The translations under genes were made by a program, and so were the position numbers. From IMG/VR virus record IMGVR_UViG_3300031701_000001, positions 1 to 47,179 of that record: a stretch of DNA of 47,179 bases, one strand, 5' to 3'. The stretch comes from a virus. Its lineage: Duplodnaviria > Caudoviricetes. Below the pieces are notes generated by a model. It was not told the origin of the DNA, ran no database searches, and saw only the letters and a program-made list of their open reading frames with translations. This document shows, in pieces, positions 18,911-45,990 of this stretch (position 1 is the stretch's first letter; each line of letters opens with the position of its first letter).

Positions 18911-18916
18911 ACTTCT

Positions 18917-19684: not shown

Positions 19685-19687
19685 TGC

Positions 19688-23227: not shown

Positions 23228-23272
23228 AACTGTTGGCAGTATAGTGAAAATCCCAAAAAATTCCACACCCAT

Positions 23273-23336: not shown

Positions 23337-23485
23337 ACAAAAAAGCATGCTTTTAAGCCTCGCAAACTGACTAGCAATGCCACCCCACCCCACGTTTACA
23401 GTGTTAACAGAGCGCGAGGGACTCAGAGGGACGCAGTGACCGGGGATGGTGGAAACGATGGCGGCGGCGGCGTGGCGAAAGAAAA

Positions 23486-23516
23486 AGGGCCATTCACACG
23501 CCATGCTTACGACATA
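23486..23516 (+). promoter_or_regulatory. Early promoter-like motif, copy 1 (AGGGCCA-N15-TACGACATA)
   Basis: AGGGCCA ttcacacgccatgct TACGACATA; 5 nt to ATG 23522. Confidence 0.8.
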
Positions 23517-24412: not shown

Positions 24413-24443
24413 AGGGCCATTGAACCCACAAACCTACGACATA
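24413..24443 (+). promoter_or_regulatory. Early promoter-like motif, copy 2
   Basis: AGGGCCA ttgaacccacaaacc TACGACATA; 8 nt to ATG 24452. Confidence 0.85.
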
Positions 24444-27126: not shown

Positions 27127-27318
27127 ATGGCACGGGGAAGAAGACCAAAGTTTACAGCCGAAACCGCTGACCGGATCAAGCGACATTGGGAGGAGTCAGA
27201 TCGATCCATGAAAGAGATCGCGGACATGTGGCAATGCGCCCCCGGCACGGTGGATAGAATTATCATGGGCAAATATACCCCCATCGAGGAATGGGAAAAC
27301 TTTAATTACGAAAACTAA
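27127..27318 (+). CDS. Small HTH DNA-binding protein (63 aa)
   Basis: GRRPKFT...SMKEIADMWQCAPGTVDRII. Confidence 0.7.
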   Translation: MARGRRPKFTAETADRIKRHWEESDRSMKEIADMWQCAPGTVDRIIMGKYTPIEEWENFNYEN

Positions 27319-27319: not shown

Positions 27320-27350
27320 AGGGCCAGCGAGGCCCGAAACATACGACATA
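27320..27350 (+). promoter_or_regulatory. Early promoter-like motif, copy 7
   Basis: AGGGCCA gcgaggcccgaaaca TACGACATA; 8 nt to ATG 27359. Confidence 0.85.
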
Positions 27351-28591: not shown

Positions 28592-28818
28592 AAACGCACT
28601 GGCATGTGACGAACAAGCCACGCTGGATTAACACCCGTCACATCATATGGTTCACCCCAACTGTCGAACCCGATGCGGGCGCGGATGTGTACTTAACGTG
28701 CGATAATGATGCAACCCATGAGTTCATCGCCGTCAACGAAACCCCCGAAGAACTGATCGACCAGCTTACAGCCCTAATCGACCAGCGGTGTTCCGGTAAC
28801 GATCCTGCACACGATTGA
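28570..28818 (+). CDS. Hypothetical protein (82 aa)
   Basis: WIN..HI...V.ETPEEL pattern (FlbD-like small proteins); converges on the giant gene. Confidence 0.5.
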   Translation: MPSEQFLKTHWHVTNKPRWINTRHIIWFTPTVEPDAGADVYLTCDNDATHEFIAVNETPEELIDQLTALIDQRCSGNDPAHD

Positions 28819-31800
28819 TTCGGGCCACGCCACTTGGAACATTCTTCCTTGCCCAGCGTAGGAAAGCATTCTGCGTGTCGGCCTTGGTTTGCATGCCCAC
28901 TCGGATGGGTTGATTGCTACGCACCACGCTCTTCAAGGATCGCAAGGACATGCCCATCTCCACCAGCGCATCCTTGGCTTCCCGTGCCGCATCAATATCG
29001 CCAGCAAGCAGCGCGTCCTTGAGGTTCACCTTTTTCGTGGTGTACTTGTCATCCGAGAAGATGCCGTTGAACTTGGACTCCACGGAGATACCCGTTTCCT
29101 CGCCAAACCTACGGGCCAAGGTGCGCGTGTAAGAAAGGTCACGCTTCGCAGCCCATAACCCCTCGGCGGGTTTGCCCGTGGCAAGTTCTTCGGCTCGACG
29201 ATACCAGCCGCGACCCAATCCCTCGGTCTGCTTCGCAAGCGGGATGTTCCTAGCCATCTCTACAAATTCCTGCTGGGCTGCTTCGGCAGACATTCCTTTC
29301 TGATACCAGCTACGCCCTGCCCCGATTAAATCGTTGGCGAGGTTGAACAACGGCGGCTTGAACGGGTCTTTCCAGCGACCACCACGGGTGGCTTGCTCCT
29401 TGGCGAGCATCGCGTAGTCACCCCAGAACCCAGTAGCTCCGGTGAACACCATGTTCTTAGTAACTCGCTCCAAAATTTTAGCCAACTTTTCTTCCTCGGC
29501 CTTGTCGATCTCTTCCAAGGATGGATCGCGGCGTTCCTTGTCCGTGAACAGGCCGCTCAACCATTGCAGCAACTCACCGAATAACATGCCACCCGCGAGG
29601 AACCGGATCGCGGGCATTGCTGTGCGATACTTCTTGCCACCCACCTTGGTTCCAAATACCAGTGGCGAGGTCACATTCATAATGATGTCGCGGCCACGTT
29701 GGAATGTCCACCGCTGGAACTGGAGCATCAGCTTGGTGATGCCGCCTTGATTGCCCATGAACAACGGGTGCTGTGCAATCGAGTAAGTGTATTGCTTCTC
29801 GGCCACACTGCGCCGGGCAAACTCTTCCACCAAGGATTGATCGCCAGACAAAAGTAGCTGGGCCTCTTCTTCTGTAAACTTCAATCGCTTCAATGCAGCC
29901 ACGCGCTGTGTCGCCAAGTACTCACCCTTCCGGTTGGCGTAGATGGCGCGGCTGGCCCGTAACCAATTCAAGCTGGCTCCCATTGTCACGCCACGCGCCA
30001 AGCGATCCATTGATTGCTTGAAGTATAATGCTTTGTTGCCAACCTCGCTTATTGCCTTGTCACCTTTGCCCTCGGAGAGACGTTCCTCCATTATCTGCGC
30101 TTGCTGGAAATCCTCCGTGATTGCCCCCATGCCCATCGCTTCCTCGACTAGCTCGGATGACTCAGCCTTCCAGTTGCGTTGGGACACATTCCGTAGCGTC
30201 CTGCCAACGGCCCGTGCCGCTTGCACCAAGGCTCTTCCCCCTTCGGGCAAGGTGGCGCGGAAACCGAACTGCTCATTAGCCAGCATCACGCCGCTTACAA
30301 AGTCACGCACCGCAGTGAAGTAACCCGATAAGTAACTGATACCCGTGATCGATACAGCCCGCTCAAAGAAACGTGATGACTTGGTGGGCGTTTGGCGGCG
30401 GCGGTAGACTGTGTTGGCCACCTCTTTCAAGTAATCCCGTACCGCTTCGTCGTGCCGCGCTGCCTTTATGGCCGCGCCAAATGCGTCTGCTGATTTATTT
30501 GTGGTCTGGCTAAACGCCCAGACTTGGGCTGCGCGGTTACTGAATTGCAGCAGGAACTGCAAGTAACCGTCCACGCTGGTATCATAAAATTCCTTGGGCA
30601 TCCGTAAGCCACGGGCGCGTTCCACGTTGGCCATGAACTCGCCGCCCTGCATCTCAGCCCCGCTGATCATGCCAGCCAAGTACTCCTCGGCAGCAGCGTC
30701 ACTCTCCAGCCCGTCCCGCACCAGCGCGTCCTTCAAACTTTGATACAAGGCTGGGTCGCGGCTGGGTTCATTGATCACATCGAGAACCCTCTGGGATAGG
30801 CGGCGGGGATAATGCAAACGCCCCATGTTCTTCAGTGGCCTCCATTTACCCTTGCCTTCTTGCACTTGGATACCCAGTTCATCCGATAACCCGCCCGTCA
30901 TCTCCGCAGTATCCTCGACCACGCGAATGAGGTTGATCGCGTTTCCATTGGTCATGTTGGTTAAGTGATCCGCTGCCCGCGCACGAGCATCGCGAGCCTC
31001 GCGCTTGATGATCACGCTCAAGGCCCGCTCAAGACGATTGTACTCTGTCCAATCCGGTTGCTCTGCCCCTTGGTTGCGTTGCTTGATTTTCCTCATCTGG
31101 GTCAAGAGGGTATGCACTGCTTGCGTTGACCCGTAGTCCTCCCGAATCTCAAAGTATTTCCCAGCTTCCTCGTGAGCTTCCTTGATCTCGGTACTGGTCA
31201 GCGGCTTCTCCCAGTTTCGCATCCCCGCGAACAGCTTGCCTTGGTACTCGCCCTTCTTGATCTCGTACTGGTACACGCGCTTGGCTAACTTGCTCAAGCC
31301 AATGTCTTCCAGTGTGTCCACTACCGAAAGCCAGTCACCTTTTATGAGCCTTAAAGCCTTCGCCCCAAGCCCACCGAAACTTACGCTGACTGGATCGCCA
31401 TTGTCACCCGCAGTTATCACGGCATCGATCTGTTCCTTGGTTGCAAACTTTGCAGCGTCCTCCTCTGACATGGTAGACCCTTCCAACGGATCGTAGGCGT
31501 AGGTGGCATTCAACTCATGGTTCTTGTCAACCATGCCCTGCTCAATGTCGATGGACTGGAAGACGATGCTGCTGGTCTTCTCGGTGATAGTGGTGTTACG
31601 CACTTGCTCATTCACCAGATCAGCGATGGGCTTGAAGATTTCTGCGTGGGCGGTGTTTTGGTCTCCGGTCACATCGCTGAAATCCATAGTGATGCCACCT
31701 CCAACACTCCCTTTGTGAACCACCGCATACGCACTCTGAATTGAAATCTTGCGCTTAAACATTCTAAGAAGGTCGGACTGCGAGACGATGTCACCGTGAA

Positions 31801-34800
31801 AAACGGTTGCTCCAAGCCCGGAACCACCCACGGCATTGGTTAACTGCTTGCCGCTTCTTTTGTCTGCTAAATATAATAGAGCATACTCGCCTTCTTTCTT
31901 TTTAATTCCAGAAAAGTCACGTTCTCTTTGCTTCACCTCCACCCATTCTGGGAATTCATACATGCTCTCGGCATGCTGCGCGGCTTCCTCCATCACAATG
32001 CTTTGAGCAGCTTTCTTTGTCTTGTGCGTAGAGGGCGTGTAGCTCCCCTCGCTGGGGTCAGCTACAATCAACTCAAAGCCCTCTTGATGGGACAGCACTG
32101 TATCGGTTAACGCTCCGCTGCCACCCGCTTTCTTCGCATACTTCTTAAACTTTTTCGGGATGATCTGGTCGTACAACATGTAAGCCCAGTCCATCTGGCT
32201 GACTTCTTTTTCGAGGGTGTAGGAGGCTTCGGGGGTAAGTAAAAAATTTTCCAGATTTGATTTGAAGGTGCGCGAGCTTCCCGACGGTATCGTGGCCAAC
32301 ACTGCCTCATGCTGCTCATCTGCCGCGCTCGCTGCTTCTTCAGCACCCTTTTTACCAATCAACTTGGCCAGCTTGGATTTGGTTACGTCAGTATGGTAAC
32401 CCGGAAGACGAATTTCCTCTCTATTCCCACCCGAATCATCCTCTTCCTTCCCAAAGTAGCGTACCGTATAAGTCCATTGCCGCACCCCATCCACCACCTT
32501 CTTCTGGTCGCGAGATATTTTCAACGACTTAACAGGGATATCAAGTTTGGAATATCGCTTGGCTGTCTCGGTTCCGTTCATCCAAGATACCTTGGAGTAA
32601 CCGTTTTCAATTGCCCACCGAAGCATACGTTTCACAGCCAGATCGTTATGCCGTGCTTTCATGGTTGGCTCTGGGGTCAGCCTATTCCCGCCACCACTGT
32701 CTTCGGCATCTGAAATCTTCTGCTCAAGGCGCATCACTATGTTGTTATAGTTGTGATACAGCTTGTTTGCTAATTGCTTGGAGCGGACACGCGCGTTGCG
32801 ATTCTTGTCTCGATCAGCCAACGCTTTGTCAAATTCAGCATCGGTCATATCCCCCATCGTTTTTTCATCCCGCTTCAAACGATATTTTTGGGTGCGATCC
32901 CGGAGAGCTTTGTAGTGCTTTAGATCAGCCTTCCACTTGGCCAGTTCTTCCGCCGTGAACCCCATCCCCTCGCCCAATGCATTCCGATAATCCTTCGCCC
33001 AGTCAGACTGCAATTCTTCGATGAACAAAATCTTGTTGCCGTTCTCGTCTACCCGATCATCAAACCTCACATGTACTACCACGTTCATGTCCCGCCAGTG
33101 GCTGGACTGGTACTTGACGGGGGCATCAGCGTCACCCATCATCGTGGGGTTCAAAGGCACGGTCAATCGCATCTCGCGATATGTACCCGGCTCGTAGCCC
33201 TTCAGCACCAAGTCACCTTGGCCGTAAGTTTCCCACCTTGTCTCGCTGCCCTCGGCTACTACCTCGTCTACTGTGACTTGGTTCATGCGGATGAAGGCCG
33301 CAACGTCTTCCTTGTGAACTTGGCCGGGCTTTAGGTTCTCATGGTCAGAAACTGCCAGCCTCCACTCTCTGTCATAGGCTTGCGTGTTCAGTTCCTCTTC
33401 CAACCCAAGGATATCAATCTCGTCCTGCGTGACACCGGGGGACTTCTTCAGCTTGGCAAGCAACTGATCCGGTGTCCAAACGTCTTGAGGTAATCGCTCG
33501 GTAACCGCAATCATCTTGCTGAAGAATCCTGCGTTGCCAGTATGGCTAACATCGAGATCACCCGCCATTGGATCAAAGGCGAATTGCTTGGTGCTGTCTG
33601 GTCGCCGCCGCCCACGCCGTGCTTCTTCAATCCGCTTATTTTCAAGCGATTCGCGGGTATCAATGTGAGTAAGCTCAACATTTTCGGGGCGTTCCATCAA
33701 CGTACTCGTAGCACTCTGCACTCGTGCAAGGACGGTCACATCGTTATAGCTAATCCCCAAAAGCGTAGCGATGTGACGCTTGAGCGTGTCCCACAAACTA
33801 TTCAAGCGGCCCATCGACGGGTAAAATGAGTTTCTCTGTTCCGCTGGGTCAGCAATGTCACTCATCTTGATGGACTGTAGAAATTTTTGAAACTTTCTGT
33901 CGGACATTGCTTCAGCCATCATTTCGTGAACGTCAGCCAACCCGTAATAATACTGGTTTGATGAGTATCCTACTCGCGAGTCCTTTGCGCCTTTGTAGAA
34001 ACTTTCGGGCTGATTGGATAATCTGTGGTGAATCAGATTCAACTCGACCACCGCAATCTCAGACTCGCTGGGTTTTCCTCCCTTGGTGAAGTCGTCAATA
34101 ACGGCTGCAACCCATTCTGAATTTAAGCCCCTCTCACGTTGGTTGAGCCAGAAATTCTCACCCCCTAAACGGTCGGCTGACCTTTTCACCACGTCATCGT
34201 GGGCGCGTGATGTTTTCCCGTGGACAATTTCGTGAATCGTGGTGGTGGTGTACTCTTTGATTTGGGCACTCATTCTAATCGAGTCTTTCAACTCTCCCGT
34301 TTCTTGAACGACATCTGGTTTCCATGCGCTTGTTTTTGAGAAGTCATCAAGAACGTGTTCAATCGGTATATCTGGGGTAGTCCCTTTGAGAACTTGCTCA
34401 CTCATCACCTTCTCAAGCTCGTTTCCATTGGCTATGATGTATTCCAGATTGCCGTGTGCCGTTGGTGGAGCATCGAATAACCCTTTTAGGAATTCGGGAG
34501 AGTTTGATACTCCCTCGTTTAAGGCTAGGGCGCGGTCTATTCTGGCAGCTTCCGCTGACTCGGCTGGGGTGGGATTATCCAGTTCTGACTCAAGTGGAGG
34601 TGACTCAACTGGGGCTGACTCAACTGGGGCGAATTCACGAACGGACTTATCATACTCAAGGTATTCCTTGGAGGTTTTCGGATGCATTGGATCAAAGGCG
34701 AATTGCTTGGACTCTGACCGGACATCCCCAAAACTTCGCCAATCTTTTCTGCTGCTAGTCTCGGACTCCATTACCGTGGAGGAAGAATCCATAACCCTAC

Positions 34801-37800
34801 TAAGAACATTAGCTTCCTCTATGTTAAGGCCAAGCACATCAGCTACGGCTTGCTTGAATCTGCTCCATAGATTTGCCGTCCCGCTTACGCCTCCCTCGCG
34901 CTGCACACCCCCCTTAAAGTTATCAAGCCCTAGCTCAGAGACTTTGATGCCCTTCAAGTAGTTCCTAAACGTGGGGTTAGACCACGCTTCAGCAATCATC
35001 TCATCAAGATTTGTTGCCCCGTATAAATCTTTCCTCTTGAAGTCATCCCGCAGCAGCAGCCTGTTGTACATCCAATGAAGTTCCGCCGCCGCCAGTTCTT
35101 CGCGGGAGACGGGGTCTTCGCGGAAAGATGCCTCTTTGCCCGCCTTCTCCGAAATGACCTCAAGCCACTCGCTAGTATTGTCATAGGTTCTTGCCCTTTC
35201 ACCGCCGTGATCCTCAAACAGCCCAAGCCGATCCATAGAATCTTGAACGACATTGCTAATTTTCCGTATGGCCTTCGCGTGTGCTGCTTCGTGAAGAGTT
35301 ACTCCGGTTAAACTTGGAGACTCACGAGATACTTCAATGGAATGCCTCCGCGTACTGTATGCTCCCCACGTTTTCGACGCACTGCCCGCCATTTGTGAGT
35401 TAAGATTGGGCTTAAATGAAAGCGCAGCGGCCTCGGTGGTTCCTTTCATCAGCCCTTCAGCCAGTGTTCTTGCCTCGGCAGACGGGCTTTCTTTGGCTAT
35501 AACCTCCAGTGCTTCGTTGTCAGTTTTACTCTGTGAAATTCTTTCATCGACCGCCGGGGTTGTCTCTATGGTATACGCATCTGCTCTGCCAGAAGTCTCA
35601 GCCTCTGCTGCCATTGGATCAAAGGCGTATTGCCTAGTACCATCGCCAACATCCCCCCTTGCTCGATCAAGGTCTCGCTTGATAACTGGGATCACCTTCT
35701 CCACGGGAGCCAACTCTCGCGTCAAGGCATCTACGATGTAGACCTCCCCATCCTTGCCCTTCAGCACATTCTGGTGATGCAGATCGCCATGCACAAAGGA
35801 TCGGTTTCCGATCACCGAGACCGCTCGCTTGACATCATCACCGATCATTACCTCAACTCCTGTGGGGGGCATCAGTTCTAGATTGCGGGTGCGGAGGTGC
35901 TTGGCAAGGTCATCGGGTGATGTGTCAACTGCATTAACATAGCGTTGCTTCGTTACAATGCCGCTCTCTACCACGCCAACAATCTCGGTGAAGACAAAGC
36001 CCCCATGATTGTTCTCTGCCCGCAGCCTCTCGGAAAACTGAAGGAAACTCTGGTTCTTATGGAGACTGTACCCCTCCAAATAGCCCGATTGATCGGCGCG
36101 GAAGTGACCCACCGGAGCCGCTTTGCCAATCCCTCCATCGGGCAGCAAGTTTACGATCTTGTACACCGCCATATTATCAATATCGAGGTACACCTCCGCC
36201 TCAGAGCCTTTATCGTGGTACTTGTATTCCCCCTCCAGCTTGGAGCGGGAAAGGAGCCGCAACTCGCGGCGAAGATTCTTGATGAGAGGGGCAGCTTTAT
36301 CGACTGCGACATCTTCAGTGGGGTGAAGCAGCGCGTCGAGTGTGAATACAGACGCTTCGTCTGGGGTTAGACCGAGACCAAGCCCGATTTCCTCAGACGC
36401 TCTAAAGATGCCTTGTGAGATTGCCGCCGCTCTTCTTCGGACATTATCGGAGAAGTCGGCCCCGTGGGCGGGTAACCTCTCGCCTCCCAAAGTTGTTTTA
36501 ATCGGGCTTGAATTTCTGGGGGGTAGGATTCCAGACTGGGCTTTGGTGAATTGGTCGCGCTTAAAGGCATTGGCGTTACTGTACTCCGACATTTCGCTTT
36601 CGTCAAGGGGATCAAAGGCCCATTGAGCGTGGTCTTTCGTCCCCGACTTCTCTGACATTCTCTTCTTGAACTCTTTGTTGGCGTTCTCTAATAAGACACG
36701 GTATTTCTTTCTAGTGATCCCTAGGTCTGTGTAAGATTCTACACCAGTCATCCCCTTCATCGTGTTTCTCAGAACGGCGGCTTGATCTGCGTCCATCTCA
36801 CTCAGCACCTCTTCCATCCTCTCGGCGCGTTGCTCAAGAGACAACACCTCATCTGGAGTGACGGCCCCCGTGTCTTGCATCACATCGCCAACCGTGCCGC
36901 CATCTTCCCCTACCTCCTTTTGCATCGAGGTGGCATCCGCGAGATTCGTCCTCACCCCAGTTGCGCCTATGCCTTCTTTGGAGCGAGTGAAATCAATTGC
37001 TAGAAGCCCTGCTCGTCGGCCAAGGGCACTGGCTAATTGCTTGTCCGACATGGCATCGAATTGCCCAGCAGCCGCTTGTTTAAGTAATGCATCCTCTACA
37101 AAAATCCGAGCCGCATCCCTCTGGTTGGCGGGCAGCTTATTAACTGCGCGGCCAGCAGCAGCCATGATCCGTTCAGCAACTGCTTCCGCATCGCGCCCAT
37201 CGATTTGCTCTTGCACCAGTGCCGCTGCATCAGCCTTAGCCTTCTCGGTAATTTCAGCCCGCGCCTTCTTTGCCGCTTCGTCCCGTGCTTCTGCGTCCGC
37301 CTCGGACTTCGCGGTTCTTGCATCTGCCCGTTCCGTTGCTGCCTCGGCCCCTGCTTTCTCAGTGGTTGGCTTTGCTGCCTTCTTCTTCGCGGGCTTAACC
37401 TCTGCTGCCTCCGCTGCTTCCGCTGCTTCCGCTGCTTCCGCTGCTTCCGCTGCTTCGTCTGCCGCCTCGGCCATTGCATCCTCGTCCAAGGCTGCTTCTT
37501 CCGCTGCCTCTGCTGCCTCCTCCTCCTTCTTCGCGGGCTTAACCTCCTCCGCTGCTTTCACCTCGGTCTTGGCCACCTCGGTCTTGGCTACTTCGGTCTC
37601 GGCCACCTCGGCCCCCTTGCCCTTCTGGGTCTTGAGGAACTTCTCGACTGCCTTGATCTCCTTCGCGATGCGCGGGTTGATTAACGTGCCCGTAGTCTTC
37701 TTGAAGAACCGGATGATGGAGTTGAGAGCTTTAGTTAGGTAACTATCGTTCTTCGGTTGCCATCCTTCCGTTGTCTTACCCGTAGCAATGCGCTGCCACG

Positions 37801-39829
37801 AATACCTAATAAATTCCTCGGCCAATTGCGCTTCGCTCTCTTGTTCCCCCCGCTTCTTGCGAATCTTGAGAATCTTGGTGCGCTCTTTCTCCGTCATCTC
37901 ACTCCACACACCCTCCAATTTCTCCTCGCGGAAAGATGTCCAAGCAGCCGTGTCGGATGGATCGCCTCCCGCTGCCAGAAAATCTGCGAACATTGCACGG
38001 TCACGGGCAACATGTCGGCCCTCTTCGTCTACGGCCCTCGCGATGTAGTCGGGGCGACGAGCAACAGCATTGTTGTCCTTCGTAAGGAAGTCCAAGTCCA
38101 CCTCGATTACCCCGCTACCCCTGTCTTCGGGCCTAACAAAAATGCCACCGCCACCTCGGTTAGTCTTGATGCTCAATGTCCCAGACTCCAGCCCCAGCCG
38201 CTCTTCCACTTCCTTCACCGCCTTGACTACCGGAGTCATCACTGCACTGGACTGCTCGTCAGCTAACGAGGCATCAGTGACATCAATGGTAACACCGTCA
38301 CGCTTGATTACCTTGGGCTTGGTGCGGGCGGGCATTGTGGGAAGGTCGGGATCGGAGCGATCAGTGACGGCATAGTTTCCTTCCTCATCAAGAATCTCGA
38401 TAGTCTCGCGGCCCGGTTTATCTAGTCGTGACTGCGACTCAACCCCCGCTGCGGAGTCTTCCATTGCTTCGGCTGCTGGCCCTTGAGGGAATGCGTCCTT
38501 GGCCAAGACTCCAGTCATATCAAAGACAATCTCTTCCCGAAGGAGTTTGGCCTTTTTCTCTAATACTTCTGCGGTTTCTGGAGAATTATTTTCTCTCGCT
38601 TCTTTTGCATGCTTCTCAAGTTCCGCTGCTCGCTGCGCCTTGCGCTGAACACTGGCAACCGAGGAATGAACCCCCCCGAAAAGAGCCCCCACCAAGCCGC
38701 CAACCAACGCAGCTTCCCCTAGTCCATGTCTTACGTCTCTTAGCTCATCGTACTTGGCTAGATGTGCAGCGGTAAGGTTGAGCAAGAGTGTCTGTCCAGC
38801 TTCTTGCGTGGCCTCTGATGCCGCTGCCCCAGCCACATTACCAAGGTAAGAGCCAGCGATATCTCCCCATCTACCCTTTGAAGCCCTATCCATTCTCGCA
38901 AGTAATTTTGAACTTGCGCCCCCCGCGCCGAATGCCTCAGTAAGTCCACCCACTGCATTAATGCCGAACGCAAGCCACAGCTTGTTAAGTTCTTCTGGCG
39001 TTGGTTCTCGGCCCTCGTCCGCTGCCTTCTTGTAAACATGGTAACGGGCATCCTCCCAGCCACCAACGCCGTTAACTGCTGCGCCAAGTGGGGCGACACC
39101 CTTCCACCGATACATTGCCGCCAAGGCTTGCTGCTCTGCTATTCCTCCCTCGGCAAACTTGGCTGCAATTTCTTTCGTCTTGAGTGCGCCGATCTTTTCA
39201 AGCTCCTTCAACGTGGCTCCAGAGACCGGGCCACCGTGGGCTAACCCCCTTGTTGCATCTGTCTTGGCTGCTTGTTTGGCCAGAGCTTTCTTGCCAGTAG
39301 CTAGTACTGAGGCTTTTGTTGCAGCCTTAAACGGTGCAGCAAGAAGCCCACCTCCAGCCATGAACCCTAGACCAGAGCCAATTCCGCTTGCAGCCTTGTC
39401 AGCCCAAAATTCCCCCTCGTATTCTGGGTTTCTCCACTCATCTGGGAAAATCGCTTTCCCCATCTCATCAAAGCCAACACCTATTTGGTAAAGAGGGTTA
39501 TAAGTGAGCGGTGTGTCCAAGGGTTCCCCCGCAATCCCGCCAAGAGTTTTATCTATCGCGAATTTCCCAACAAGACCGCCAGCCTTAAACAAGTCGGCCA
39601 CTGCGGTGCTGACGAAAGTTTGGCCAAGGCCAACAACAGCAGTGCTAAATCGCCCTCGTTCTAACCGCGCAAAACGCTTTTCCCTCGCCGCCCTTTCCCT
39701 CTCATCCATGTGGGATACATCTCGACCCATTGTCCCCGAAGGGCTGGCGTAAAGGTACGAAATATTATCTTCCTCTTCGTAAACCTCCTCCAACGAAAGT
39801 GGTTGCTTGTCTTGTTCTGTGACCTCCAT
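28766..39829 (-). CDS. Giant polyvalent virion/ejection protein (3687 aa): sigma-like, kinase-like, two zincin peptidase and other modules
   Basis: Uninterrupted 11-kb ORF with an AGGAG RBS; last gene of the podovirus-like tail/ejection operon; HExxH twice, HGDLHxxN, ECF-like regions 2 and 4, five AFDP-type motifs. Confidence 0.9.
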   Translation of the reverse strand: MEVTEQDKQPLSLEEVYEEEDNISYLYASPSGTMGRDVSHMDERERAAREKRFARLERGRFSTAVVGLGQTFVSTAVADLFKAGGLVGKFAIDKTLGGIAGEPLDTPLTYNPLYQIGVGFDEMGKAIFPDEWRNPEYEGEFWADKAASGIGSGLGFMAGGGLLAAPFKAATKASVLATGKKALAKQAAKTDATRGLAHGGPVSGATLKELEKIGALKTKEIAAKFAEGGIAEQQALAAMYRWKGVAPLGAAVNGVGGWEDARYHVYKKAADEGREPTPEELNKLWLAFGINAVGGLTEAFGAGGASSKLLARMDRASKGRWGDIAGSYLGNVAGAAASEATQEAGQTLLLNLTAAHLAKYDELRDVRHGLGEAALVGGLVGALFGGVHSSVASVQRKAQRAAELEKHAKEARENNSPETAEVLEKKAKLLREEIVFDMTGVLAKDAFPQGPAAEAMEDSAAGVESQSRLDKPGRETIEILDEEGNYAVTDRSDPDLPTMPARTKPKVIKRDGVTIDVTDASLADEQSSAVMTPVVKAVKEVEERLGLESGTLSIKTNRGGGGIFVRPEDRGSGVIEVDLDFLTKDNNAVARRPDYIARAVDEEGRHVARDRAMFADFLAAGGDPSDTAAWTSFREEKLEGVWSEMTEKERTKILKIRKKRGEQESEAQLAEEFIRYSWQRIATGKTTEGWQPKNDSYLTKALNSIIRFFKKTTGTLINPRIAKEIKAVEKFLKTQKGKGAEVAETEVAKTEVAKTEVKAAEEVKPAKKEEEAAEAAEEAALDEDAMAEAADEAAEAAEAAEAAEAAEAAEVKPAKKKAAKPTTEKAGAEAATERADARTAKSEADAEARDEAAKKARAEITEKAKADAAALVQEQIDGRDAEAVAERIMAAAGRAVNKLPANQRDAARIFVEDALLKQAAAGQFDAMSDKQLASALGRRAGLLAIDFTRSKEGIGATGVRTNLADATSMQKEVGEDGGTVGDVMQDTGAVTPDEVLSLEQRAERMEEVLSEMDADQAAVLRNTMKGMTGVESYTDLGITRKKYRVLLENANKEFKKRMSEKSGTKDHAQWAFDPLDESEMSEYSNANAFKRDQFTKAQSGILPPRNSSPIKTTLGGERLPAHGADFSDNVRRRAAAISQGIFRASEEIGLGLGLTPDEASVFTLDALLHPTEDVAVDKAAPLIKNLRRELRLLSRSKLEGEYKYHDKGSEAEVYLDIDNMAVYKIVNLLPDGGIGKAAPVGHFRADQSGYLEGYSLHKNQSFLQFSERLRAENNHGGFVFTEIVGVVESGIVTKQRYVNAVDTSPDDLAKHLRTRNLELMPPTGVEVMIGDDVKRAVSVIGNRSFVHGDLHHQNVLKGKDGEVYIVDALTRELAPVEKVIPVIKRDLDRARGDVGDGTRQYAFDPMAAEAETSGRADAYTIETTPAVDERISQSKTDNEALEVIAKESPSAEARTLAEGLMKGTTEAAALSFKPNLNSQMAGSASKTWGAYSTRRHSIEVSRESPSLTGVTLHEAAHAKAIRKISNVVQDSMDRLGLFEDHGGERARTYDNTSEWLEVISEKAGKEASFREDPVSREELAAAELHWMYNRLLLRDDFKRKDLYGATNLDEMIAEAWSNPTFRNYLKGIKVSELGLDNFKGGVQREGGVSGTANLWSRFKQAVADVLGLNIEEANVLSRVMDSSSTVMESETSSRKDWRSFGDVRSESKQFAFDPMHPKTSKEYLEYDKSVREFAPVESAPVESPPLESELDNPTPAESAEAARIDRALALNEGVSNSPEFLKGLFDAPPTAHGNLEYIIANGNELEKVMSEQVLKGTTPDIPIEHVLDDFSKTSAWKPDVVQETGELKDSIRMSAQIKEYTTTTIHEIVHGKTSRAHDDVVKRSADRLGGENFWLNQRERGLNSEWVAAVIDDFTKGGKPSESEIAVVELNLIHHRLSNQPESFYKGAKDSRVGYSSNQYYYGLADVHEMMAEAMSDRKFQKFLQSIKMSDIADPAEQRNSFYPSMGRLNSLWDTLKRHIATLLGISYNDVTVLARVQSATSTLMERPENVELTHIDTRESLENKRIEEARRGRRRPDSTKQFAFDPMAGDLDVSHTGNAGFFSKMIAVTERLPQDVWTPDQLLAKLKKSPGVTQDEIDILGLEEELNTQAYDREWRLAVSDHENLKPGQVHKEDVAAFIRMNQVTVDEVVAEGSETRWETYGQGDLVLKGYEPGTYREMRLTVPLNPTMMGDADAPVKYQSSHWRDMNVVVHVRFDDRVDENGNKILFIEELQSDWAKDYRNALGEGMGFTAEELAKWKADLKHYKALRDRTQKYRLKRDEKTMGDMTDAEFDKALADRDKNRNARVRSKQLANKLYHNYNNIVMRLEQKISDAEDSGGGNRLTPEPTMKARHNDLAVKRMLRWAIENGYSKVSWMNGTETAKRYSKLDIPVKSLKISRDQKKVVDGVRQWTYTVRYFGKEEDDSGGNREEIRLPGYHTDVTKSKLAKLIGKKGAEEAASAADEQHEAVLATIPSGSSRTFKSNLENFLLTPEASYTLEKEVSQMDWAYMLYDQIIPKKFKKYAKKAGGSGALTDTVLSHQEGFELIVADPSEGSYTPSTHKTKKAAQSIVMEEAAQHAESMYEFPEWVEVKQRERDFSGIKKKEGEYALLYLADKRSGKQLTNAVGGSGLGATVFHGDIVSQSDLLRMFKRKISIQSAYAVVHKGSVGGGITMDFSDVTGDQNTAHAEIFKPIADLVNEQVRNTTITEKTSSIVFQSIDIEQGMVDKNHELNATYAYDPLEGSTMSEEDAAKFATKEQIDAVITAGDNGDPVSVSFGGLGAKALRLIKGDWLSVVDTLEDIGLSKLAKRVYQYEIKKGEYQGKLFAGMRNWEKPLTSTEIKEAHEEAGKYFEIREDYGSTQAVHTLLTQMRKIKQRNQGAEQPDWTEYNRLERALSVIIKREARDARARAADHLTNMTNGNAINLIRVVEDTAEMTGGLSDELGIQVQEGKGKWRPLKNMGRLHYPRRLSQRVLDVINEPSRDPALYQSLKDALVRDGLESDAAAEEYLAGMISGAEMQGGEFMANVERARGLRMPKEFYDTSVDGYLQFLLQFSNRAAQVWAFSQTTNKSADAFGAAIKAARHDEAVRDYLKEVANTVYRRRQTPTKSSRFFERAVSITGISYLSGYFTAVRDFVSGVMLANEQFGFRATLPEGGRALVQAARAVGRTLRNVSQRNWKAESSELVEEAMGMGAITEDFQQAQIMEERLSEGKGDKAISEVGNKALYFKQSMDRLARGVTMGASLNWLRASRAIYANRKGEYLATQRVAALKRLKFTEEEAQLLLSGDQSLVEEFARRSVAEKQYTYSIAQHPLFMGNQGGITKLMLQFQRWTFQRGRDIIMNVTSPLVFGTKVGGKKYRTAMPAIRFLAGGMLFGELLQWLSGLFTDKERRDPSLEEIDKAEEEKLAKILERVTKNMVFTGATGFWGDYAMLAKEQATRGGRWKDPFKPPLFNLANDLIGAGRSWYQKGMSAEAAQQEFVEMARNIPLAKQTEGLGRGWYRRAEELATGKPAEGLWAAKRDLSYTRTLARRFGEETGISVESKFNGIFSDDKYTTKKVNLKDALLAGDIDAAREAKDALVEMGMSLRSLKSVVRSNQPIRVGMQTKADTQNAFLRWARKNVPSGVARINRVQDRYRNTAGRLGL
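37380..37610. repeat. Low-complexity E/A/K linker repeats in the giant gene
   Basis: (gctgcttcc)n encoding EAA repeats; cttcttcgcgggcttaacctc (EVKPAKK) twice; TEVAK repeats. Confidence 0.8.
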
Positions 39830-39838: not shown

Positions 39839-41506
39839 CTACCAATCCCAATCTTCACCCGTTTCAATTTTCGTAAGTTTACTCGCCTTGCCGGGGTTCC
39901 TCTCTCCTTTGAACATTTTACTAGTAAGTATCCAAATTCGATCTTTCTCTAAGTCTTCAACTATGGCTGGATAAGTCCATAGATGTATTTGTTCACCAGT
40001 GGTATCCCTGCTCCAATATATTCTCCCAATGTTTTCCTTCTTCTCGACTTCTTCCCACTGCGGTATCCCCTCTTCTTCATATACACTGTGACCCTTCTCC
40101 TCTAATTTATCTCTTAGGGAGTTTCTGGTTTTCTCTTTGTCTGGGCTAAACCCAAAATCCGCGCCCCTCCTATCATACGCGCCCCATCTATCATGCCCCA
40201 GTTTTGCCTTAAATGGCTCCGCAGTGTCGCCATCAGTCCCGTACTCCTTTGCATTCTTATTAACCCAGTCAACATCTCCTTCGCCATAAAACAGAGTGAA
40301 GGCATAATTGTATGCGTTCAAGACATCCCCATCCGTAAGCTCTTTTCCGGTTTCACTTGCGCCGGGAGTAAAGGAGTACACTTGAGACATGGCCTCCTCG
40401 CCAGTTACCCCCGTGCCACGCGCATTTCCGTACCGAGCCCTAACTGTCGCTTGTGCCAATTTTTCGAGGTCATCAGCGGGGGTGGCAGCGTGAGCGGGAT
40501 CAGCCCTCAGATTCTTAATCTCGTATGAAACATCTTTATTGAATTGAGAAGCGGAAGGCTTGCCGCCATCACTGCCTCGCGATGATGCCGGGTTAACGTA
40601 AACATTCACTGTCTTACCCTCGCTGTCGGTGGACTGATACAACTCAAGACCCCTCTCCTCTGCCGCTTGCCTTCTTATGGCATTGCCGTAGGTAACCTCG
40701 TCAATGATGCCGTTGGCTGAAGTGTAATCACCTTGGTTTACATTCATCGCACCCGGAGAACCAGCGTGTCGGGCAACTATGTCGGCAGTGTATGCGTTTG
40801 CTGCTTTAGTAAACTTAGCAGGGTCATTTATGTCTGATTCAGCAAGGTGTCCCTTACCCATAAGGAACAATTTTTGGGCATCCGATTGTTGCTTAATCTT
40901 AAAGGCCAAGCCCTTTGTCCGTTGCTCCTCTTTGTTGCCTACCGCATTAGAATAATGTGTATTGTACCTAGCGAGGTTATCACCAGAGAGCCCCGTGCTG
41001 TCTATTGCTTTCAAGTCTGAAAGACTTCTATTTGGGTCAGCAATTATCTGATTTATCAGATTAATCTTCTCCGAGAAAATCGGTGCTTCGCCATCTTGCC
41101 TAATCCTTTCCTCAAGAGTACTCTTGTTGATCTGCGTTTGTACCCTCGACGCACTCAACCTCGCAATGCCGTTCAACTGATCCAACTCATGCTTGTCCTC
41201 GTTCAAGATCAGTTGTTGCGCTGCGGCTTGGTTGCTCAACGAAAGGTTCTGATTTCTTTTTTGCGCCTCAATCATTTGAAGCGGATGCATGTCTGCCTTT
41301 TGCGCCATGTTCTGCATCTGCGTCTGGAGGTTCATCGCTGTCTGCGCACCCGACTGGGCCAAGCGTTGTTGTGCCTCAACAGATCGACTGGTCTCCGATT
41401 GCCGCGCCAGACTGGTGCGATCCTGCGAGGCCCGCTCTTGTTCTGCCGCCAGCCATGTCTTCTGCGGATCGGGTGCGATGTATCTTGGTGCAATTAAGTT
41501 AGCCAT
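39839..41506 (-). CDS. Probable internal virion/ejection protein (555 aa)
   Basis: Q-rich helical N-terminus; position just before the giant gene. Confidence 0.6.
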   Translation of the reverse strand: MANLIAPRYIAPDPQKTWLAAEQERASQDRTSLARQSETSRSVEAQQRLAQSGAQTAMNLQTQMQNMAQKADMHPLQMIEAQKRNQNLSLSNQAAAQQLILNEDKHELDQLNGIARLSASRVQTQINKSTLEERIRQDGEAPIFSEKINLINQIIADPNRSLSDLKAIDSTGLSGDNLARYNTHYSNAVGNKEEQRTKGLAFKIKQQSDAQKLFLMGKGHLAESDINDPAKFTKAANAYTADIVARHAGSPGAMNVNQGDYTSANGIIDEVTYGNAIRRQAAEERGLELYQSTDSEGKTVNVYVNPASSRGSDGGKPSASQFNKDVSYEIKNLRADPAHAATPADDLEKLAQATVRARYGNARGTGVTGEEAMSQVYSFTPGASETGKELTDGDVLNAYNYAFTLFYGEGDVDWVNKNAKEYGTDGDTAEPFKAKLGHDRWGAYDRRGADFGFSPDKEKTRNSLRDKLEEKGHSVYEEEGIPQWEEVEKKENIGRIYWSRDTTGEQIHLWTYPAIVEDLEKDRIWILTSKMFKGERNPGKASKLTKIETGEDWDW

Positions 41507-41527
41507 AATTTTAGTTCCTATGAGTCC

Positions 41528-42421
41528 TTATGCGTAAGCCTGTCCTGCTGGTAATGTTTGTAAATCCGTTGTTCCCAATGGGGGCGCGGGAGGATTATTT
41601 TTCCATTTCGGCAACTGGGTTTGGCGCGACAAATTGCGCGAAGAACCTTGGGATGCGTAGTTCGGGGAGGAGTAACCGCCCCTGTCTTGAAACTGTGTGT
41701 AGCCCTGCTGCCCACCGAACAGCATTGCGTTTCTAACTGGATTCAGCGGCCCTACTAGCTGCGGCCCTACGGGTTGCCCGATGCCAGCAATGTTAGCCCG
41801 CTGCTGCTCATCCCATGCCGCCCGTGCTGCGGGGTTAGGCATGCTTGCCGCCTCAGAATTCCACGAGGCAATCTGGGCGGAAAAATCTGCATTACGTTGG
41901 TTGGCTGAGATTGTGTTGTTAGCCGAGGAGAACGAGTCACCAATGTAACCCAAGCTGGCTTGCCGCTCTGCCCCAAATGCATTCATTACCGTGGGGGCAA
42001 GGGATGATAGGGTCTGCACCCCCTGCTGTTGCACCCCGTAAGTATTCAGCCCGTAATTAGCCAACTCACCAAACCCAGAGAACTGACTGCCGGGCATACC
42101 CATATCAATGCCTCGACTTGCTGCACGGTTAGCCAGTTGCTTCTCAAAGTCCGCGCCCATTTCTCCCTTCGCCCATGTCTTGCCCATGTCAATCGCCGTG
42201 CCTATGCCCTCACTGAAGCCGGGGAAATACTTCTCCACCGCGCTCATCAATGCATCGGTACTCTTGCCCAGAAGTTGCCCCCCTAGCTCGGTAGCCTTGG
42301 GCATGATCTCTTCGTCCGTCTTGCCCTTGTCCTTTTGGGTCTGGGCAATGTCGATGGACGTATCATCCAGTGGCTTCTTTGGGCTTCCGAATGTAGCCTC
42401 GTAGTCGGTATGTTTAGGCAT
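41528..42421 (-). CDS. Probable DNA ejection/pilot protein (297 aa)
   Basis: G/Q/A-rich with an AASRG...G motif; first of three ejection-type genes. Confidence 0.55.
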   Translation of the reverse strand: MPKHTDYEATFGSPKKPLDDTSIDIAQTQKDKGKTDEEIMPKATELGGQLLGKSTDALMSAVEKYFPGFSEGIGTAIDMGKTWAKGEMGADFEKQLANRAASRGIDMGMPGSQFSGFGELANYGLNTYGVQQQGVQTLSSLAPTVMNAFGAERQASLGYIGDSFSSANNTISANQRNADFSAQIASWNSEAASMPNPAARAAWDEQQRANIAGIGQPVGPQLVGPLNPVRNAMLFGGQQGYTQFQDRGGYSSPNYASQGSSRNLSRQTQLPKWKNNPPAPPLGTTDLQTLPAGQAYA

Positions 42422-42436
42422 AATATGTTTCTCCTG

Positions 42437-43411
42437 CTATTGAAAGTTTGGTACGGATGCACCCCCAAAAGTGTTGTTGTTAATGAACCTCGGAATCGCA
42501 ACCACCCCGTCTCCCATGTAATGTTGTAGCTGGTCGTTCAGTAACTGGATTGCTTGGGCTTCGTAATCCACCGCTTCCCGAATGTTATTGGTCTCCTCTT
42601 TGCGGAGGGCCATCACCATCAGCTTCAATGCCGACTCAAAATTAATGTACAACCAATCATTGTCATTCACCGCCGGAACAAACCGCAGTTTGCCCACCAC
42701 TGTCACCGTCACGGTGCTGGTATCGGTTAGACCGGGAATGAGGCTGCGACGATAAGTGGGGCGGGCCTCAGTTGGCTCGTACTCAGCAATGGCTCGATCT
42801 GTGCTGTCCGTAGTGTCATGTTCCTTGAGCAGAACATTGTAGTTTGTCTTATCGCGGATCACTCCGCTCAATGCGCTGAACTTACTGTTAGTGGTCACAC
42901 TGCTGCTGCTGGCAACTAACGTCACCTTCTCCCCATCAATATGATTGCTGCCATCCACCGTCCTAATCCAATCCCCGCTCTCATCGTAGCCTTGCAGGAT
43001 CATCGTCTTGCCAGCGTCGGTGTCACTTGTAGTTACGACCTTCAGCTTCTTATCCAGTCCGTCAATGTCACTGAAGGATACCGCTTCTGCTCGGTCAATG
43101 AGGGTCATCTGGTCGCCGTCCGCGCTGTCAAGAAGACCGGGGCCGCTCTCAAGGAACTCGTACCATTCATTCCGAACAATTGCTGGGGAGTCCCCCACTG
43201 CCACCGCCTCAACGGTCTCTAGCTGGCGGGGCCATGTGATTGTTCCATTGCTTGATGTGACCGCGTAGCGGACATAGGTTCCGGGCCACTTGCCCTTGTA
43301 AACCAGCCGCTCCTGCGCCTCGTTGACGTACTTAATGACGCGGCTATCGGCAGCGGGCAATGACAGCACCTTCGCCATCCCTTCCTTGATGTCTCCGTAA
43401 GTCAGTTTCAT
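42437..43411 (-). CDS. Probable tail adaptor/tubular protein A-like (324 aa)
   Basis: N-terminal YVNEAQERL helix typical of head-tail adaptors; tail operon. Confidence 0.5.
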   Translation of the reverse strand: MKLTYGDIKEGMAKVLSLPAADSRVIKYVNEAQERLVYKGKWPGTYVRYAVTSSNGTITWPRQLETVEAVAVGDSPAIVRNEWYEFLESGPGLLDSADGDQMTLIDRAEAVSFSDIDGLDKKLKVVTTSDTDAGKTMILQGYDESGDWIRTVDGSNHIDGEKVTLVASSSSVTTNSKFSALSGVIRDKTNYNVLLKEHDTTDSTDRAIAEYEPTEARPTYRRSLIPGLTDTSTVTVTVVGKLRFVPAVNDNDWLYINFESALKLMVMALRKEETNNIREAVDYEAQAIQLLNDQLQHYMGDGVVAIPRFINNNTFGGASVPNFQ

Positions 43412-44145
43412 TATGTTTTAATGATGTAGTTGGCTACCACTTGGTAAGGTTGCATATTGTTCATGGCCGTAGCACCACCAACATCGTAGTGGCTCGCGTT
43501 GCCGAAGGATGGAACATTGGCGGTATAGTTCCAGTTGCTGTAATTATCAACAGTGCTAAAAGACATGTTCTTCACATACTTGCCATCTGGCATCTCATCA
43601 AACGTCAGCGTATGCAACTCCTCGCCACCTGTGTTGCCCGCTGCGTCGTTGCTTGCCATCCGTGCTGCTGTGCCGTCCGCTGCCACGGCCACGCGCCCTC
43701 GCATATCGGGCAGCTTAAAGTTTAGCGTGGCATCCGTTGCCGCTCCGTAGGTCGTGCCGAGCAATGCGTTTAGCCGAACGTAGGTTAGCTTCGCCACATC
43801 GCTGCCATCGCACAGCAGCCACCCGTCCGGTGCGCTGGCTCCAGCGTAGGGGTTCAACGTCCCAACCGGAGTCGTGCTGAAACTCTGCCACGCGCTGTTG
43901 CAAGTATCGTAGTAGTACCAACCTAACGGGCGTGAATCGCTGTCCAGCTTCATCCATAGCTTGTCTTGGTCGCCGCTGCTGACAGTTGCGCCAACGGTAA
44001 ACGCTGCGCCCAGATGGTTGATGGTGGTCTTGGCCGCGAACTCCGCGTGGGTAGCTTGTAGCGAGGTGTGGCAGAACCCGCTCGTTAACGTCTCTGCCGC
44101 GATGGCGTATGTGGCTCCGTTCGTGATGGTTGTACAAGTTGGCAT
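43411..44145 (-). CDS. Tail collar-domain protein (244 aa)
   Basis: PVGTLNPYAGASAPDGWLLCDG...FKLPDMRGRV...NMQPY...YIIK. Confidence 0.85.
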   Translation of the reverse strand: MPTCTTITNGATYAIAAETLTSGFCHTSLQATHAEFAAKTTINHLGAAFTVGATVSSGDQDKLWMKLDSDSRPLGWYYYDTCNSAWQSFSTTPVGTLNPYAGASAPDGWLLCDGSDVAKLTYVRLNALLGTTYGAATDATLNFKLPDMRGRVAVAADGTAARMASNDAAGNTGGEELHTLTFDEMPDGKYVKNMSFSTVDNYSNWNYTANVPSFGNASHYDVGGATAMNNMQPYQVVANYIIKT

Positions 44146-44151
44146 AATTAT

Positions 44152-45990
44152 TTATTGGTTGGTAGCACTGCTGGTTCCGCCGAGGCAATCACAGGCGATG
44201 GCCTTGGCTGCGCTGTCTATGTTTACATCTGCATAAGGTTCTTCTTGTGTCTCCAGCGCGTTAATGCGGAACATCTTTAATCGCGCATGGCCCTTCCACT
44301 TCACGCGGGCGGCAAACTCCCACCCGTAATTCATTCGCTTACCCGCCGCCGGTTCCTCGGTGTCCGGTGGCCGACCTATCCTCATCCGAGGCCGGTACTG
44401 CTTCTGGTAATCCACCAGCGATTCACAATCACTCGCTTGGTACTCCGCAATAACGTGCCAATCCTGCCAATCAATCCAGCACGGGTACTGGTCGGGATGA
44501 AAGTCGCAATGGAAATCCACTCGACCTCCGCTTACCTCGTCCACCCACATATCCGCGCTGGCCAGTTCCTTGGCTGCGCCAACTTGCCCAAAGTCAAAGC
44601 TGGGCAACTCAATCTCGCTGCTAATCTTCTGGTACACCGCATCACCGCCGCTGTAATCCTTGTCCTCGATATGGTCGCCATCATTCTTTAGCTCCCAAAT
44701 CTCCATCGCCTCGCTCTCGTTACGGACGAAGGCAAAGCATCGCTCCACCTCGCTGAACCGACCCTTGGCCAGTTGGTAAATATCAAACCCAGTTAACGCT
44801 GACGGACTACCTCGTTCCACTTCCAGCTTCCAAAATCCGTCATAGGCTGCTGGGGCTTTTCCGCTCAACCCACTTATCAAATCGAAATCTAGCACAGTTA
44901 ACCCCTTGTACGCCACCCCCGTGGCAGCTTTGTAATTATCCATGCTGGTAAGGAGATAGCGGTTGTTGAAAAGCACCCCGCTCTGGTAGGGCAAGTAAGC
45001 TGGACTATCGTACTTCAGTATCCGCACCATCTCTCTGCTGATAGGGGTGTTGCCTTGCTGTGAAAAGTCGCGTACCGCTTGGATGAGACTACGGATGCCG
45101 TCGCGGCTTCTGAATAAACAATCGCCATTCACTAGCTCAGTGCTGTGCTGACTGCTGCTGCCATTGTTAATCAGCACCACCCGCTGAATCGGGTCAGTCA
45201 AAGCGTACCAATCGTTTCTGTCTGCCGGTACGTTCACGCTGAAGGCGGCGTCACTGGTGAACACCATCAACTCGCCTACCCCCAACGCGGTATTCGGAGC
45301 CGCCACGAATCGCATCGCCGTGATGTCGCCGCTACCTACGCTCACCGTGAATGAGCCGCCACCAGCGAGTAGCGTGTTCTCTGTAAATTTAAGTATGCCA
45401 GTTGTGCCGCCAAGGATGTCGCCCGCTACAAAGTTGCGCCCCTGCGCTACCCATAGCCGTCCGTTGCCATACGCCATCGGCCCTGTGCCGACTGGGACGC
45501 GGTTCGCCGTTGCGCTGGAGGCTTGTGGCCACGTTCCCGTGGCAGTTGCGCTGTATATATAAGGGGAGTTGGTTCCGTCTTGGATGATGAGGTACTCATC
45601 CGCTTGAATCATGTGTACCCGTTCGCGGGTGGCTGAAACCGTAACGCCGCCCGTTATGTCTGCCACTGTCCAGTTGATGCCGCTGACGGGCGGGGTGAGC
45701 TTGTAAACATTACCGCCCGCTACAACAATCATGTGCGCGGCTGTGTTGCTTTCCTCGTAGTAGCCGCTGCCTTGGAACTTCGCCGCCAGCATCGCTGTTG
45801 CGGCGGCACTGGTTGCTAAAGGAATCCGCTCAAAGCTGGGGCGCGTCTTGGCGTACCCACCACGGAATGTCACGTTCTGTGCATAGGCTACTTGAGTCTT
45901 GGGCAGGAGCGCAGGGCTGCGACCAGAATCCATGCCGCCACTCAACGCCATCACGCCGTCGCTCATTCGTCCTTGTTCGCGTATTGCCAT
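44152..45990 (-). CDS. Probable tail nozzle/stabilisation (tubular B, P22 gp10-like) protein (612 aa)
   Basis: GGMDS...AQNVTFRGG N-terminus; beta-propeller-like composition; podovirus tail context. Confidence 0.6.
   Translation of the reverse strand: MAIREQGRMSDGVMALSGGMDSGRSPALLPKTQVAYAQNVTFRGGYAKTRPSFERIPLATSAAATAMLAAKFQGSGYYEESNTAAHMIVVAGGNVYKLTPPVSGINWTVADITGGVTVSATRERVHMIQADEYLIIQDGTNSPYIYSATATGTWPQASSATANRVPVGTGPMAYGNGRLWVAQGRNFVAGDILGGTTGILKFTENTLLAGGGSFTVSVGSGDITAMRFVAAPNTALGVGELMVFTSDAAFSVNVPADRNDWYALTDPIQRVVLINNGSSSQHSTELVNGDCLFRSRDGIRSLIQAVRDFSQQGNTPISREMVRILKYDSPAYLPYQSGVLFNNRYLLTSMDNYKAATGVAYKGLTVLDFDLISGLSGKAPAAYDGFWKLEVERGSPSALTGFDIYQLAKGRFSEVERCFAFVRNESEAMEIWELKNDGDHIEDKDYSGGDAVYQKISSEIELPSFDFGQVGAAKELASADMWVDEVSGGRVDFHCDFHPDQYPCWIDWQDWHVIAEYQASDCESLVDYQKQYRPRMRIGRPPDTEEPAAGKRMNYGWEFAARVKWKGHARLKMFRINALETQEEPYADVNIDSAAKAIACDCLGGTSSATNQ

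Follow-up and report, generated by a model that had tools for sequence, protein, structure and literature searches.

A sigma factor-like module in a giant phage protein and private two-box motifs ahead of likely early genes

What would an apparently complete sigma factor do in the middle of a giant phage protein? The question is raised by the viral DNA analyzed here (47,179 nucleotides, IMG/VR record IMGVR_UViG_3300031701_000001; the whole stretch is called the window below), in which a preliminary description, made from the letters alone, had placed a factor resembling the extracytoplasmic function (ECF) sigmas inside a protein of 3,687 amino acids (aa). All the peptides quoted there were found, in order, in the gene at 28766-39829(-), where 36655-37180 encodes aa 884-1059. 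Judged by its predicted structure, the module is a divergent structural homolog of the ECF-like sigma70 family that stands outside the curated ECF families. The reading that we favor, and regard as probable, is that this ECF-like sigma is injected and re-aims the host polymerase at the phage's own likely early genes via GGGCCA-N15-TACGAC.

The window is a complete phage genome of 47,098 bp, with an exact 81-nt terminal repeat on a single contig, and is referred to as phage A. The module was also found in phage B (L009 and P0003/P0004), phage C (L007/L010/G001), and phage D (P0002, a giant of 2,581 aa).

The sigma-like module and its predicted fold

The module has three parts:

36974..37189 (-), sigma2-like domain of three helices, aa 881-952; predicted to bind core and read the -10 box
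36857..36973 (-), acidic linker resembling region 3.2, aa 953-991; matched by profile to SigA residues 260-316 (E = 5.8e-4), pLDDT (predicted local distance difference test) below 50
36644..36856 (-), sigma4-like helix-turn-helix (HTH) domain, aa 992-1062; predicted -35 reader

Ten NCBIfam sigma models matched the module (best E = 1e-4), all under their cut-offs and over the linker and region 4 only. The model TIGR02937 scored 21.7 bits against a cut-off of 42.9, and the module is thus not a member of that curated ECF family; at E<=0.05 the same model matched three of the four aligned module copies, and the module is its sole match in genome A. TIGR02937 misses the known module in G001, so that more divergent sigma modules are possible. 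Sigma factors made up 9 of the 11 matches of a phmmer search against PDB sequences (E 0.1-2.6), a three-sequence profile matched SigA region 3.2-4.1 (E = 5.8e-4), and the ESM Atlas features gave 0.97 to sigma-70 clusters.

The AlphaFold2 model (mean pLDDT 71) consists of two helical domains, with helices at 16-31, 36-55, and 64-87 and at 127-145, 149-159, 164-171, and 175-197, joined by a low-confidence linker (89-126); sigma2, linker, and sigma4 follow one another with no folded sigma3 domain predicted. When this model was compared with the PDB using Foldseek, all 44 matches listed were sigma-factor entries, led by the ECF factors SigL, SigH, and SigE. The best was Mycobacterium tuberculosis SigL (E = 3.3e-3, probability 1.00), and the alignments extended over 170-230 columns. 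Named matches in BFVD were mostly phage sigma factors. The sigma4 domain superimposes on SigL at 1.5 Å over 74 residues (Z 10.4). Folded alone by AlphaFold2, sigma2 reached a pLDDT of 90.5, and in a search made without Foldseek its nine best matches among 48,161 chains were all sigma chains, with the N-terminal domain of SigE on top (2.9 Å over 74 residues, Z 7.8, a middling value for a helical domain) and sigma70 (1sig) at Z 7.5. Modeled as a complex with E. coli beta' 250-320, sigma2 (alignment A4) scored 0.24 against a mark of 0.32 in a run with no folded controls, which was counted neither way.

On these models we take both domains to be real at the fold level. The order of sigma2, linker, and sigma4 at ECF size, as first proposed, is thereby backed by structure prediction and fold searches: rather than a lone HTH, two domains are predicted, each with fold-search matches to sigma factors. 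The linker keeps the place it was given, with the refinement that its sequence resembles the region 3.2 finger of primary sigmas.

Two-box motifs and the relatives with and without the module

Among 1.84 billion representatives, two proteins (P0002 and P0003) matched the module, and both are giants that carry it at the same place; a fourth copy lies in phage C. The layout is common to giants A to D: a Gly-rich N-terminus and an EExxH domain come first, a low-complexity tether connects them to the sigma module, and a kinase-like module, middle modules that vary, and a C-terminal domain follow. Both sigma domains and the 3.2-like linker occur in order in all four copies. Identity among most copies of the module is 21-33%, and that of the sigma4 HTH is 100% between C and D, 41% between B and C, and 24% between A and the others. 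The giants of G003 and G006 have the C-terminal domain and the EExxH motif but no sigma match, and neither a giant nor a sigma match was found in G015, G016, and G019. Searching terminase-related records with the sigma alignment (32 of 80 loci, with no positive control there) gave 0/5 and 0/27 matches, and tblastn of the module against 50,697 GenBank phage records gave none. The word-index homolog searches returned nothing although relatives exist, and are therefore uninformative. The weak locus L001, a tape-measure-like open reading frame (ORF) with a short shared word, was rejected; L002-L006 had the same score.

In phage A, each of seven small genes at 23.5-27.5 kb(+) follows an A-tract and the two boxes GGGCCA and TACGAC, which are 15 variable bases apart; the ATG lies 8-11 nt further on (21 nt once). 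These candidate promoters and an eighth exact copy are as follows:

23487..23513 (+), candidate promoter; ATG 8 nt downstream, 289-aa GP88-family gene
24414..24440 (+), candidate promoter; ATG 11 nt downstream, 88 aa
24778..24804 (+), candidate promoter; ATG 8 nt downstream, 76 aa
25052..25078 (+), candidate promoter; ATG 8 nt downstream, 74 aa
25466..25492 (+), candidate promoter; ATG 10 nt downstream, 90 aa
25794..25820 (+), candidate promoter; ATG 21 nt downstream, 272-aa gene whose B and C orthologs are led by their own motifs
27321..27347 (+), candidate promoter; ATG 11 nt downstream, 59 aa
17523..17549 (+), eighth exact copy, in a PD-(D/E)XK nuclease gene upstream of a replication-initiator gene; no A-tract

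The eight exact copies compare with 0.007 expected genome-wide, and none precedes a capsid or tail gene of A. Phage B has ACCGAC-N12-TCCGAA ten times (up to one mismatch), and its downstream box stands before an ATG 13 times; a fourteenth match, at 13736, was removed because no ATG follows. Phage C has six copies of CCCCGCAC-N12-GACGAA and one variant, with a one-mismatch copy in its replication block. The spacers vary, and boxes and spacing are constant. A CGA core is common to the downstream boxes of A, B, and C; CGA is also found in some ECF -10 boxes, for example those of Bacillus subtilis SigX and SigW.

The motifs are private. The A pattern occurs 0 times in B and once in C, the B pattern 0 times in A and C, and the C pattern in none of the 8 other sequences; the A motif with its flanks had 0 matches in viral_contigs. 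A gene with orthologs in A, B, and C (45-65% identical) has a different motif in front of it in each phage. The largest count of an ATG-proximal dyad was 7 in A, 9 in B, and 6 in C, each reached by 0 of 400 shuffles; in the sigma-less relatives the same count was 2 in G003 (over 5.2 kb), 2 in G016, 2 in G019, and 3 in G015 (reached by 7/400 shuffles). A Shine-Dalgarno-like word precedes none of the seven motif-led genes of A vs. 4/6 of its other early genes.

Motifs thus constituted track the presence of the sigma module and its sigma4 type. Phages A, B, and C each have upstream boxes and sigma4 helices of their own, C and D agree in both, and we infer from these sequences that the upstream boxes follow sigma4 identity. 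The phage-specific motifs lend genomic support to the new promoter specificity that had been suggested from the diverged recognition helices.

Host-type promoters were found in the sigma-less relatives: TTGACT-N17-TAGTCT stands at the head of the region in each of G015, G016, and G019. At these sites (G015 23743, G016 9811, G019 35445), the ATG follows ~9-12 nt past the -10 box, a spacing that suggests nearly leaderless transcripts in this host group. No TTGAC-N17-19-TANNNT was found in the early region of A, and a sigma70 consensus scan of 13.5-29 kb of the window gave 8 sites vs. 11.7 expected. In phage C, the stretch at L010 17320-17510 contains no ORF of at least 60 aa and is headed by a host-type promoter together with a variant phage-type site; it may encode a small RNA.

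The giant protein and its neighborhood

The features around the module are as follows:

28766..39829 (-), polyvalent giant of the ejection type, 3,687 aa; its gene ends the tail/internal-virion block
39839..45990 (-), virion block upstream of the giant; Collar (E = 1e-18), SU10_adaptor (E = 5e-4), order kept in relatives
37595..38317 (-), EExxH zincin-like domain, candidate autoprotease, labeled from its motif
37190..37594 (-), low-complexity Ala/Glu/Lys tether from the EExxH domain to the sigma module, seen in the sequence; shorter tethers in B, C, and D
36608..36622 (-), first boundary motif, WAFDP at aa 1070, immediately following the sigma module; candidate cleavage site
35630..36607 (-), second module, kinase-like; Kinase-PolyVal PF18762 (E = 1.3e-3, under cut-off)
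35615-35629, 34688-34702, 33569-33583, and 31487-31501 (-), further boundary motifs, aa 1401, 1710, 2083, and 2777; candidate cleavage sites

Giant A closes the podovirus-type virion block of a terminase-portal phage. The window encodes a terminase large subunit (phrog_2, E = 2e-16) and, by Pfam search, a DnaB helicase, collar-domain proteins, and an SU10 adaptor-like protein. The members of the virion block are a 612-aa probable tail protein, the collar-domain protein, the SU10 adaptor-like protein, and probable internal virion proteins of 297 and 555 aa, the roles of the 612-, 297-, and 555-aa proteins being assigned by position; the block ends with the genes of 297, 555, and 3,687 aa, in this order. 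No cultured relative was found among the 50,697 GenBank phage records, where the best terminase matches were below 33% identity. No host was assigned from two contigs of metagenome-assembled genomes with 57-58% terminase identity, each of which named another phylum.

The C-terminal 910 aa of the giant resemble Uroviricota clusters, in one set of which 28% of the members carry LPD39, and this C-terminal domain is common to giants A to D at 51-56% identity, with A at 51-53% to the C-termini of B, C, and D. The N-terminal region is Gly-rich in all four (Gly-zipper, E = 0.03). A [DS]EExxH motif is present in 6/6 giants (EExxH at aa 601-602 in A), and the EExxH domains of A and G003 are 22% identical over 244 aa (pairwise E = 6e-5); A also has HExxH at aa 1513 and 1866. 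With zincin-like motifs, the kinase-like module (E = 1.3e-3) in A, and an ART-PolyVal match (E = 6e-4) in B, all under cut-off, the giants have polyvalent traits; no LPD family of Pfam scored above cut-off in giant A. RNA polymerase was searched for in giant A with Pfam, PHROG, and NCBIfam and by scanning for catalytic motifs, and no match was found, a negative that holds at the sequence level and not for a very remote polymerase fold in the unassigned modules.

The motif [WFYH]A[FY][DN]P bounds modules in all four giants, with 5, 6, 3, and 3 copies in A, B, C, and D, and its first copy follows the sigma module. Three AF[DN]P copies are nearly identical at the DNA level, and the G003 giant has LRS[GA] four times (aa 1262, 1496, 1685, 1974) in place of AF[DN]P. 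These boundary motifs are candidate cleavage sites that may vary with the EExxH domain. Just past the first of them, a TTGAC-N-TANNNT match recurs in giants A, B, and C (window 36578-36606, L009 6165, L010 7152), probably forced by conserved residues. The B giant (L009 2960-11857) is split into frames of 2,333 and 564 aa, and is whole (2,965 aa, P0004) in another assembly.

Elsewhere, an ORF of 375-384 aa, integrase-sized, lies between the capsid-like and DnaB genes of three relatives (G001 3106-4248, G005 10307-11434, G006 31780-32934), and the window has a short gap only at this interval (14025-14264). A 193-aa ORF (21308-21889) with no Pfam match is nested, in another frame of the same strand, within a 323-aa ORF (20974-21945) whose motifs we take to be cytosine-methyltransferase-like. 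An alternating AT run and G/C runs precede the first promoter in A (window 23250-23480) and B (L009 20870-20960), after a gene that is presumably terminase-small-subunit-like; this stretch is a possible physical genome end or packaging site. In G005 (17890-20900), copies and near-copies of the palindrome TTATCCGGTTACCGGATA are found repeatedly in the early region, in the manner of an operator.

Weighing the explanations

A natural exchange between phages C and D bears on how the boxes are read. Their giants are 93% identical overall, yet sigma2 is 31-33% and the linker 42% identical; sigma2 and linker have been replaced cassette-like (L010 6467-6934, aa 797-952), and the giants are otherwise 97-100% identical. 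Marine runs X2-X4 carry the D-type giant: cover drops, or the contig skips, over L010 6467-6934, and of the 15 codons decoded in these runs, the non-synonymous variants match D in 9/9 cases. Run X3 holds both sigma2 alleles. The prediction that a D-type sigma2 comes with a new downstream box was not borne out at the single site examined: at L010 17261-17301, runs X2-X4 show 5 changes, none of them in either box, and GACGAA is kept. In its simple form, covariation of sigma2 with the -10 box is not supported, the linkage in these runs being by depth only, with no spanning contig. Boxes that stay unchanged amid five changes point to selection on them and support the link between sigma4 and the -35 box. 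The sigma2 swap may instead have to do with how well the module suits the host polymerase, or with sensing by the host. Runs X3 and X4 also contain a far deeper population in which indels lie inside the downstream box at two sites (among L010 12961-12984, 15155-15157, and 17262) and are not assignable to a sigma allele; one loose end there shows a box of the CCGAT type ahead of an ATG and may represent another kind of promoter.

The divergence of sigma2 between C and D and the unchanged downstream box weigh against an injected sigma that reads these motifs, and so do several other results. No Pfam family, Sigma70_r2 and Sigma70_r4 included, covers the module; no Foldseek match of the model, in PDB or BFVD, reached E<=1e-3; the sigma2 fold score is middling; and a sigma2 profile run against PDB sequences matched myosin light chains only (E>0.1) and no sigma factor. 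The early region of C also has a host-type promoter, TTGACA-N17-TACATT. In five of the seven A copies, the opposite strand scores as a terminator-like hairpin, and in G005, where the giant is not covered, an A-rich dyad that reads as a ribosome-binding leader occurs in four copies (0/400 shuffles). The sigma-bearing independent genomes number three, with B covered over 21.8 kb only, and the sigma-less controls are imperfect, as G003 covers 5.2 kb of the region, G006 none of it, and G015, G016, and G019 have no giant.

The module may also be a working sigma for these promoters that does not act from the virion and does so only once the giant has been newly made, in the middle or late phase or on induction; the motif-led genes would then not be the earliest to be expressed. 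Packaging of the giant is something we infer, the host-type promoter of C lies in the very region concerned, and the free-standing phage sigmas described in the available text of PMC4331800 serve middle and late genes. We hold this to be unlikely, since the giant's gene ends the virion block in all relatives and the small genes led by the motifs begin at the head of the block, the place of the host-type promoter in sigma-less relatives, with no motif before the capsid or tail genes of A. The module could instead be a decoy or inhibitor that binds core polymerase or a host anti-sigma, in which case the reader of the repeats would be a host ECF sigma or a small regulator of the phage, or the repeats would serve as recombination or antisense-terminator cassettes. 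The downstream box left unchanged by the sigma2 swap at one site would fit such a role, as would a CGA core readable by one host factor in all boxes, the hairpins in A, and genes in its early region (27127-27318) that we take to encode small HTH-like proteins. Upstream boxes that are phage-specific and follow sigma4 identity speak against it, as do spacers that vary where boxes and spacing do not, B and C copies that have no such hairpin on inspection, and sigma-less relatives without the motif; we give a decoy, too, only a small chance. Least probable is the reading of the module as the decayed remains of a sigma, or as a helical bundle unrelated to sigma plus an HTH, with no role in initiation. 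A module under all family cut-offs, its low identity among most copies, and the absence of evident residues of what we take to be the ECF signature of regions 2.2-2.3 are on its side, and the domains and 3.2-like linker kept in order in all four copies, the confident models, and the co-occurrence with private two-box motifs are against it.

Under the reading of an injected sigma, the giant would be packaged and ejected with the DNA, like N4 vRNAP and phi24B gp47; the module would then capture host core RNA polymerase and start transcription from the row of early promoters, with no protein having to be made first. Sigma4 would read the upstream box and sigma2 open the shared CGA-core box, with transcription starting a few bases before the ATG to give nearly leaderless mRNAs. 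The EExxH domain may cut at AF[DN]P and free the kinase and peptidase modules, which would leave the sigma attached by a flexible tether where the first module, the one with the Gly-zipper, ends. A more elaborate version is tentative, and we rather doubt it: the virion would inject a complete sigma tethered to the membrane-inserted first module of a self-cleaving polyprotein, polymerase would be loaded at the entry pore, transcription from the private promoters would help to pull the genome in, sigma4 and upstream box would co-diverge and so keep the promoters of each phage its own, and sigma2 would be swapped as a cassette for the polymerase of new hosts or for evading sensing.

The module is like the group 4 ECF sigmas of M. 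tuberculosis (SigL, SigH, SigE) in its predicted sigma2, short linker, and sigma4, its size of ~180 aa, and its best fold matches, and unlike them in being embedded in a virion-block protein of 2,500-3,700 aa, in a linker nearer to SigA region 3.2, and in having no anti-sigma partner identified. T4 gp55 and SPO1 gp28 are free-standing phage sigma factors. Such factors have genes of their own, are expressed from host promoters once the phage has entered, and act on middle and late genes, whereas the module here is part of a likely ejected protein and its motifs lead an early block. The available texts on phiEco32 and 7-11 and on group 2 jumbo phages (PMC4331800, PMC7824862) likewise describe free-standing sigmas that use host core and few, well-conserved private promoters.

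A closer parallel in delivery is offered by the virion RNA polymerases (N4 vRNAP and the tape-measure-fused polymerase of Thermus phage P23-45), described in the parts available of PMC13434306 and 10.1101/2022.12.01.518664 as a ~3,500-aa beads-on-a-string giant that is ejected with two smaller proteins and starts early transcription from private promoters. Crass-like phages are a further case of virion RNA polymerases. The window resembles the N4 type in its three-gene layout (297, 555, 3,687 aa) and differs in that no polymerase motif was found in giant A; only a specificity factor would be delivered, and the host enzyme borrowed. The giants also resemble polyvalent proteins in their zincin-like motifs and in their kinase-like and, in B, ART-PolyVal modules. 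For polyvalent proteins, autoproteolysis has been proposed (Iyer et al. 2017, PMC5512222, main text), and phi24B gp47, detected in virions, has been proposed as an ejection protein (10.64898/2026.04.10.717836, available text). The word "sigma" is absent from the main text of PMC5512222, whose supplements, outside our scope, may list such a domain, and no paper on a virion-borne sigma was found in the literature searched, subscription journals being outside its coverage.

Phage transcription has been described as starting from host-type promoters or from a packaged RNA polymerase; a packaged sigma, if true, would add an inexpensive third option that does not depend on the sigma state of the host (e.g., in starved cells) and needs no protein synthesis. 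The module of 180 aa and a candidate promoter are in hand for three phages, together with a natural sigma2 swap. If the reading holds, these phages would provide new orthogonal sigma/promoter pairs, as well as a way to find sigma modules in giant virion proteins that hidden Markov model libraries have missed.

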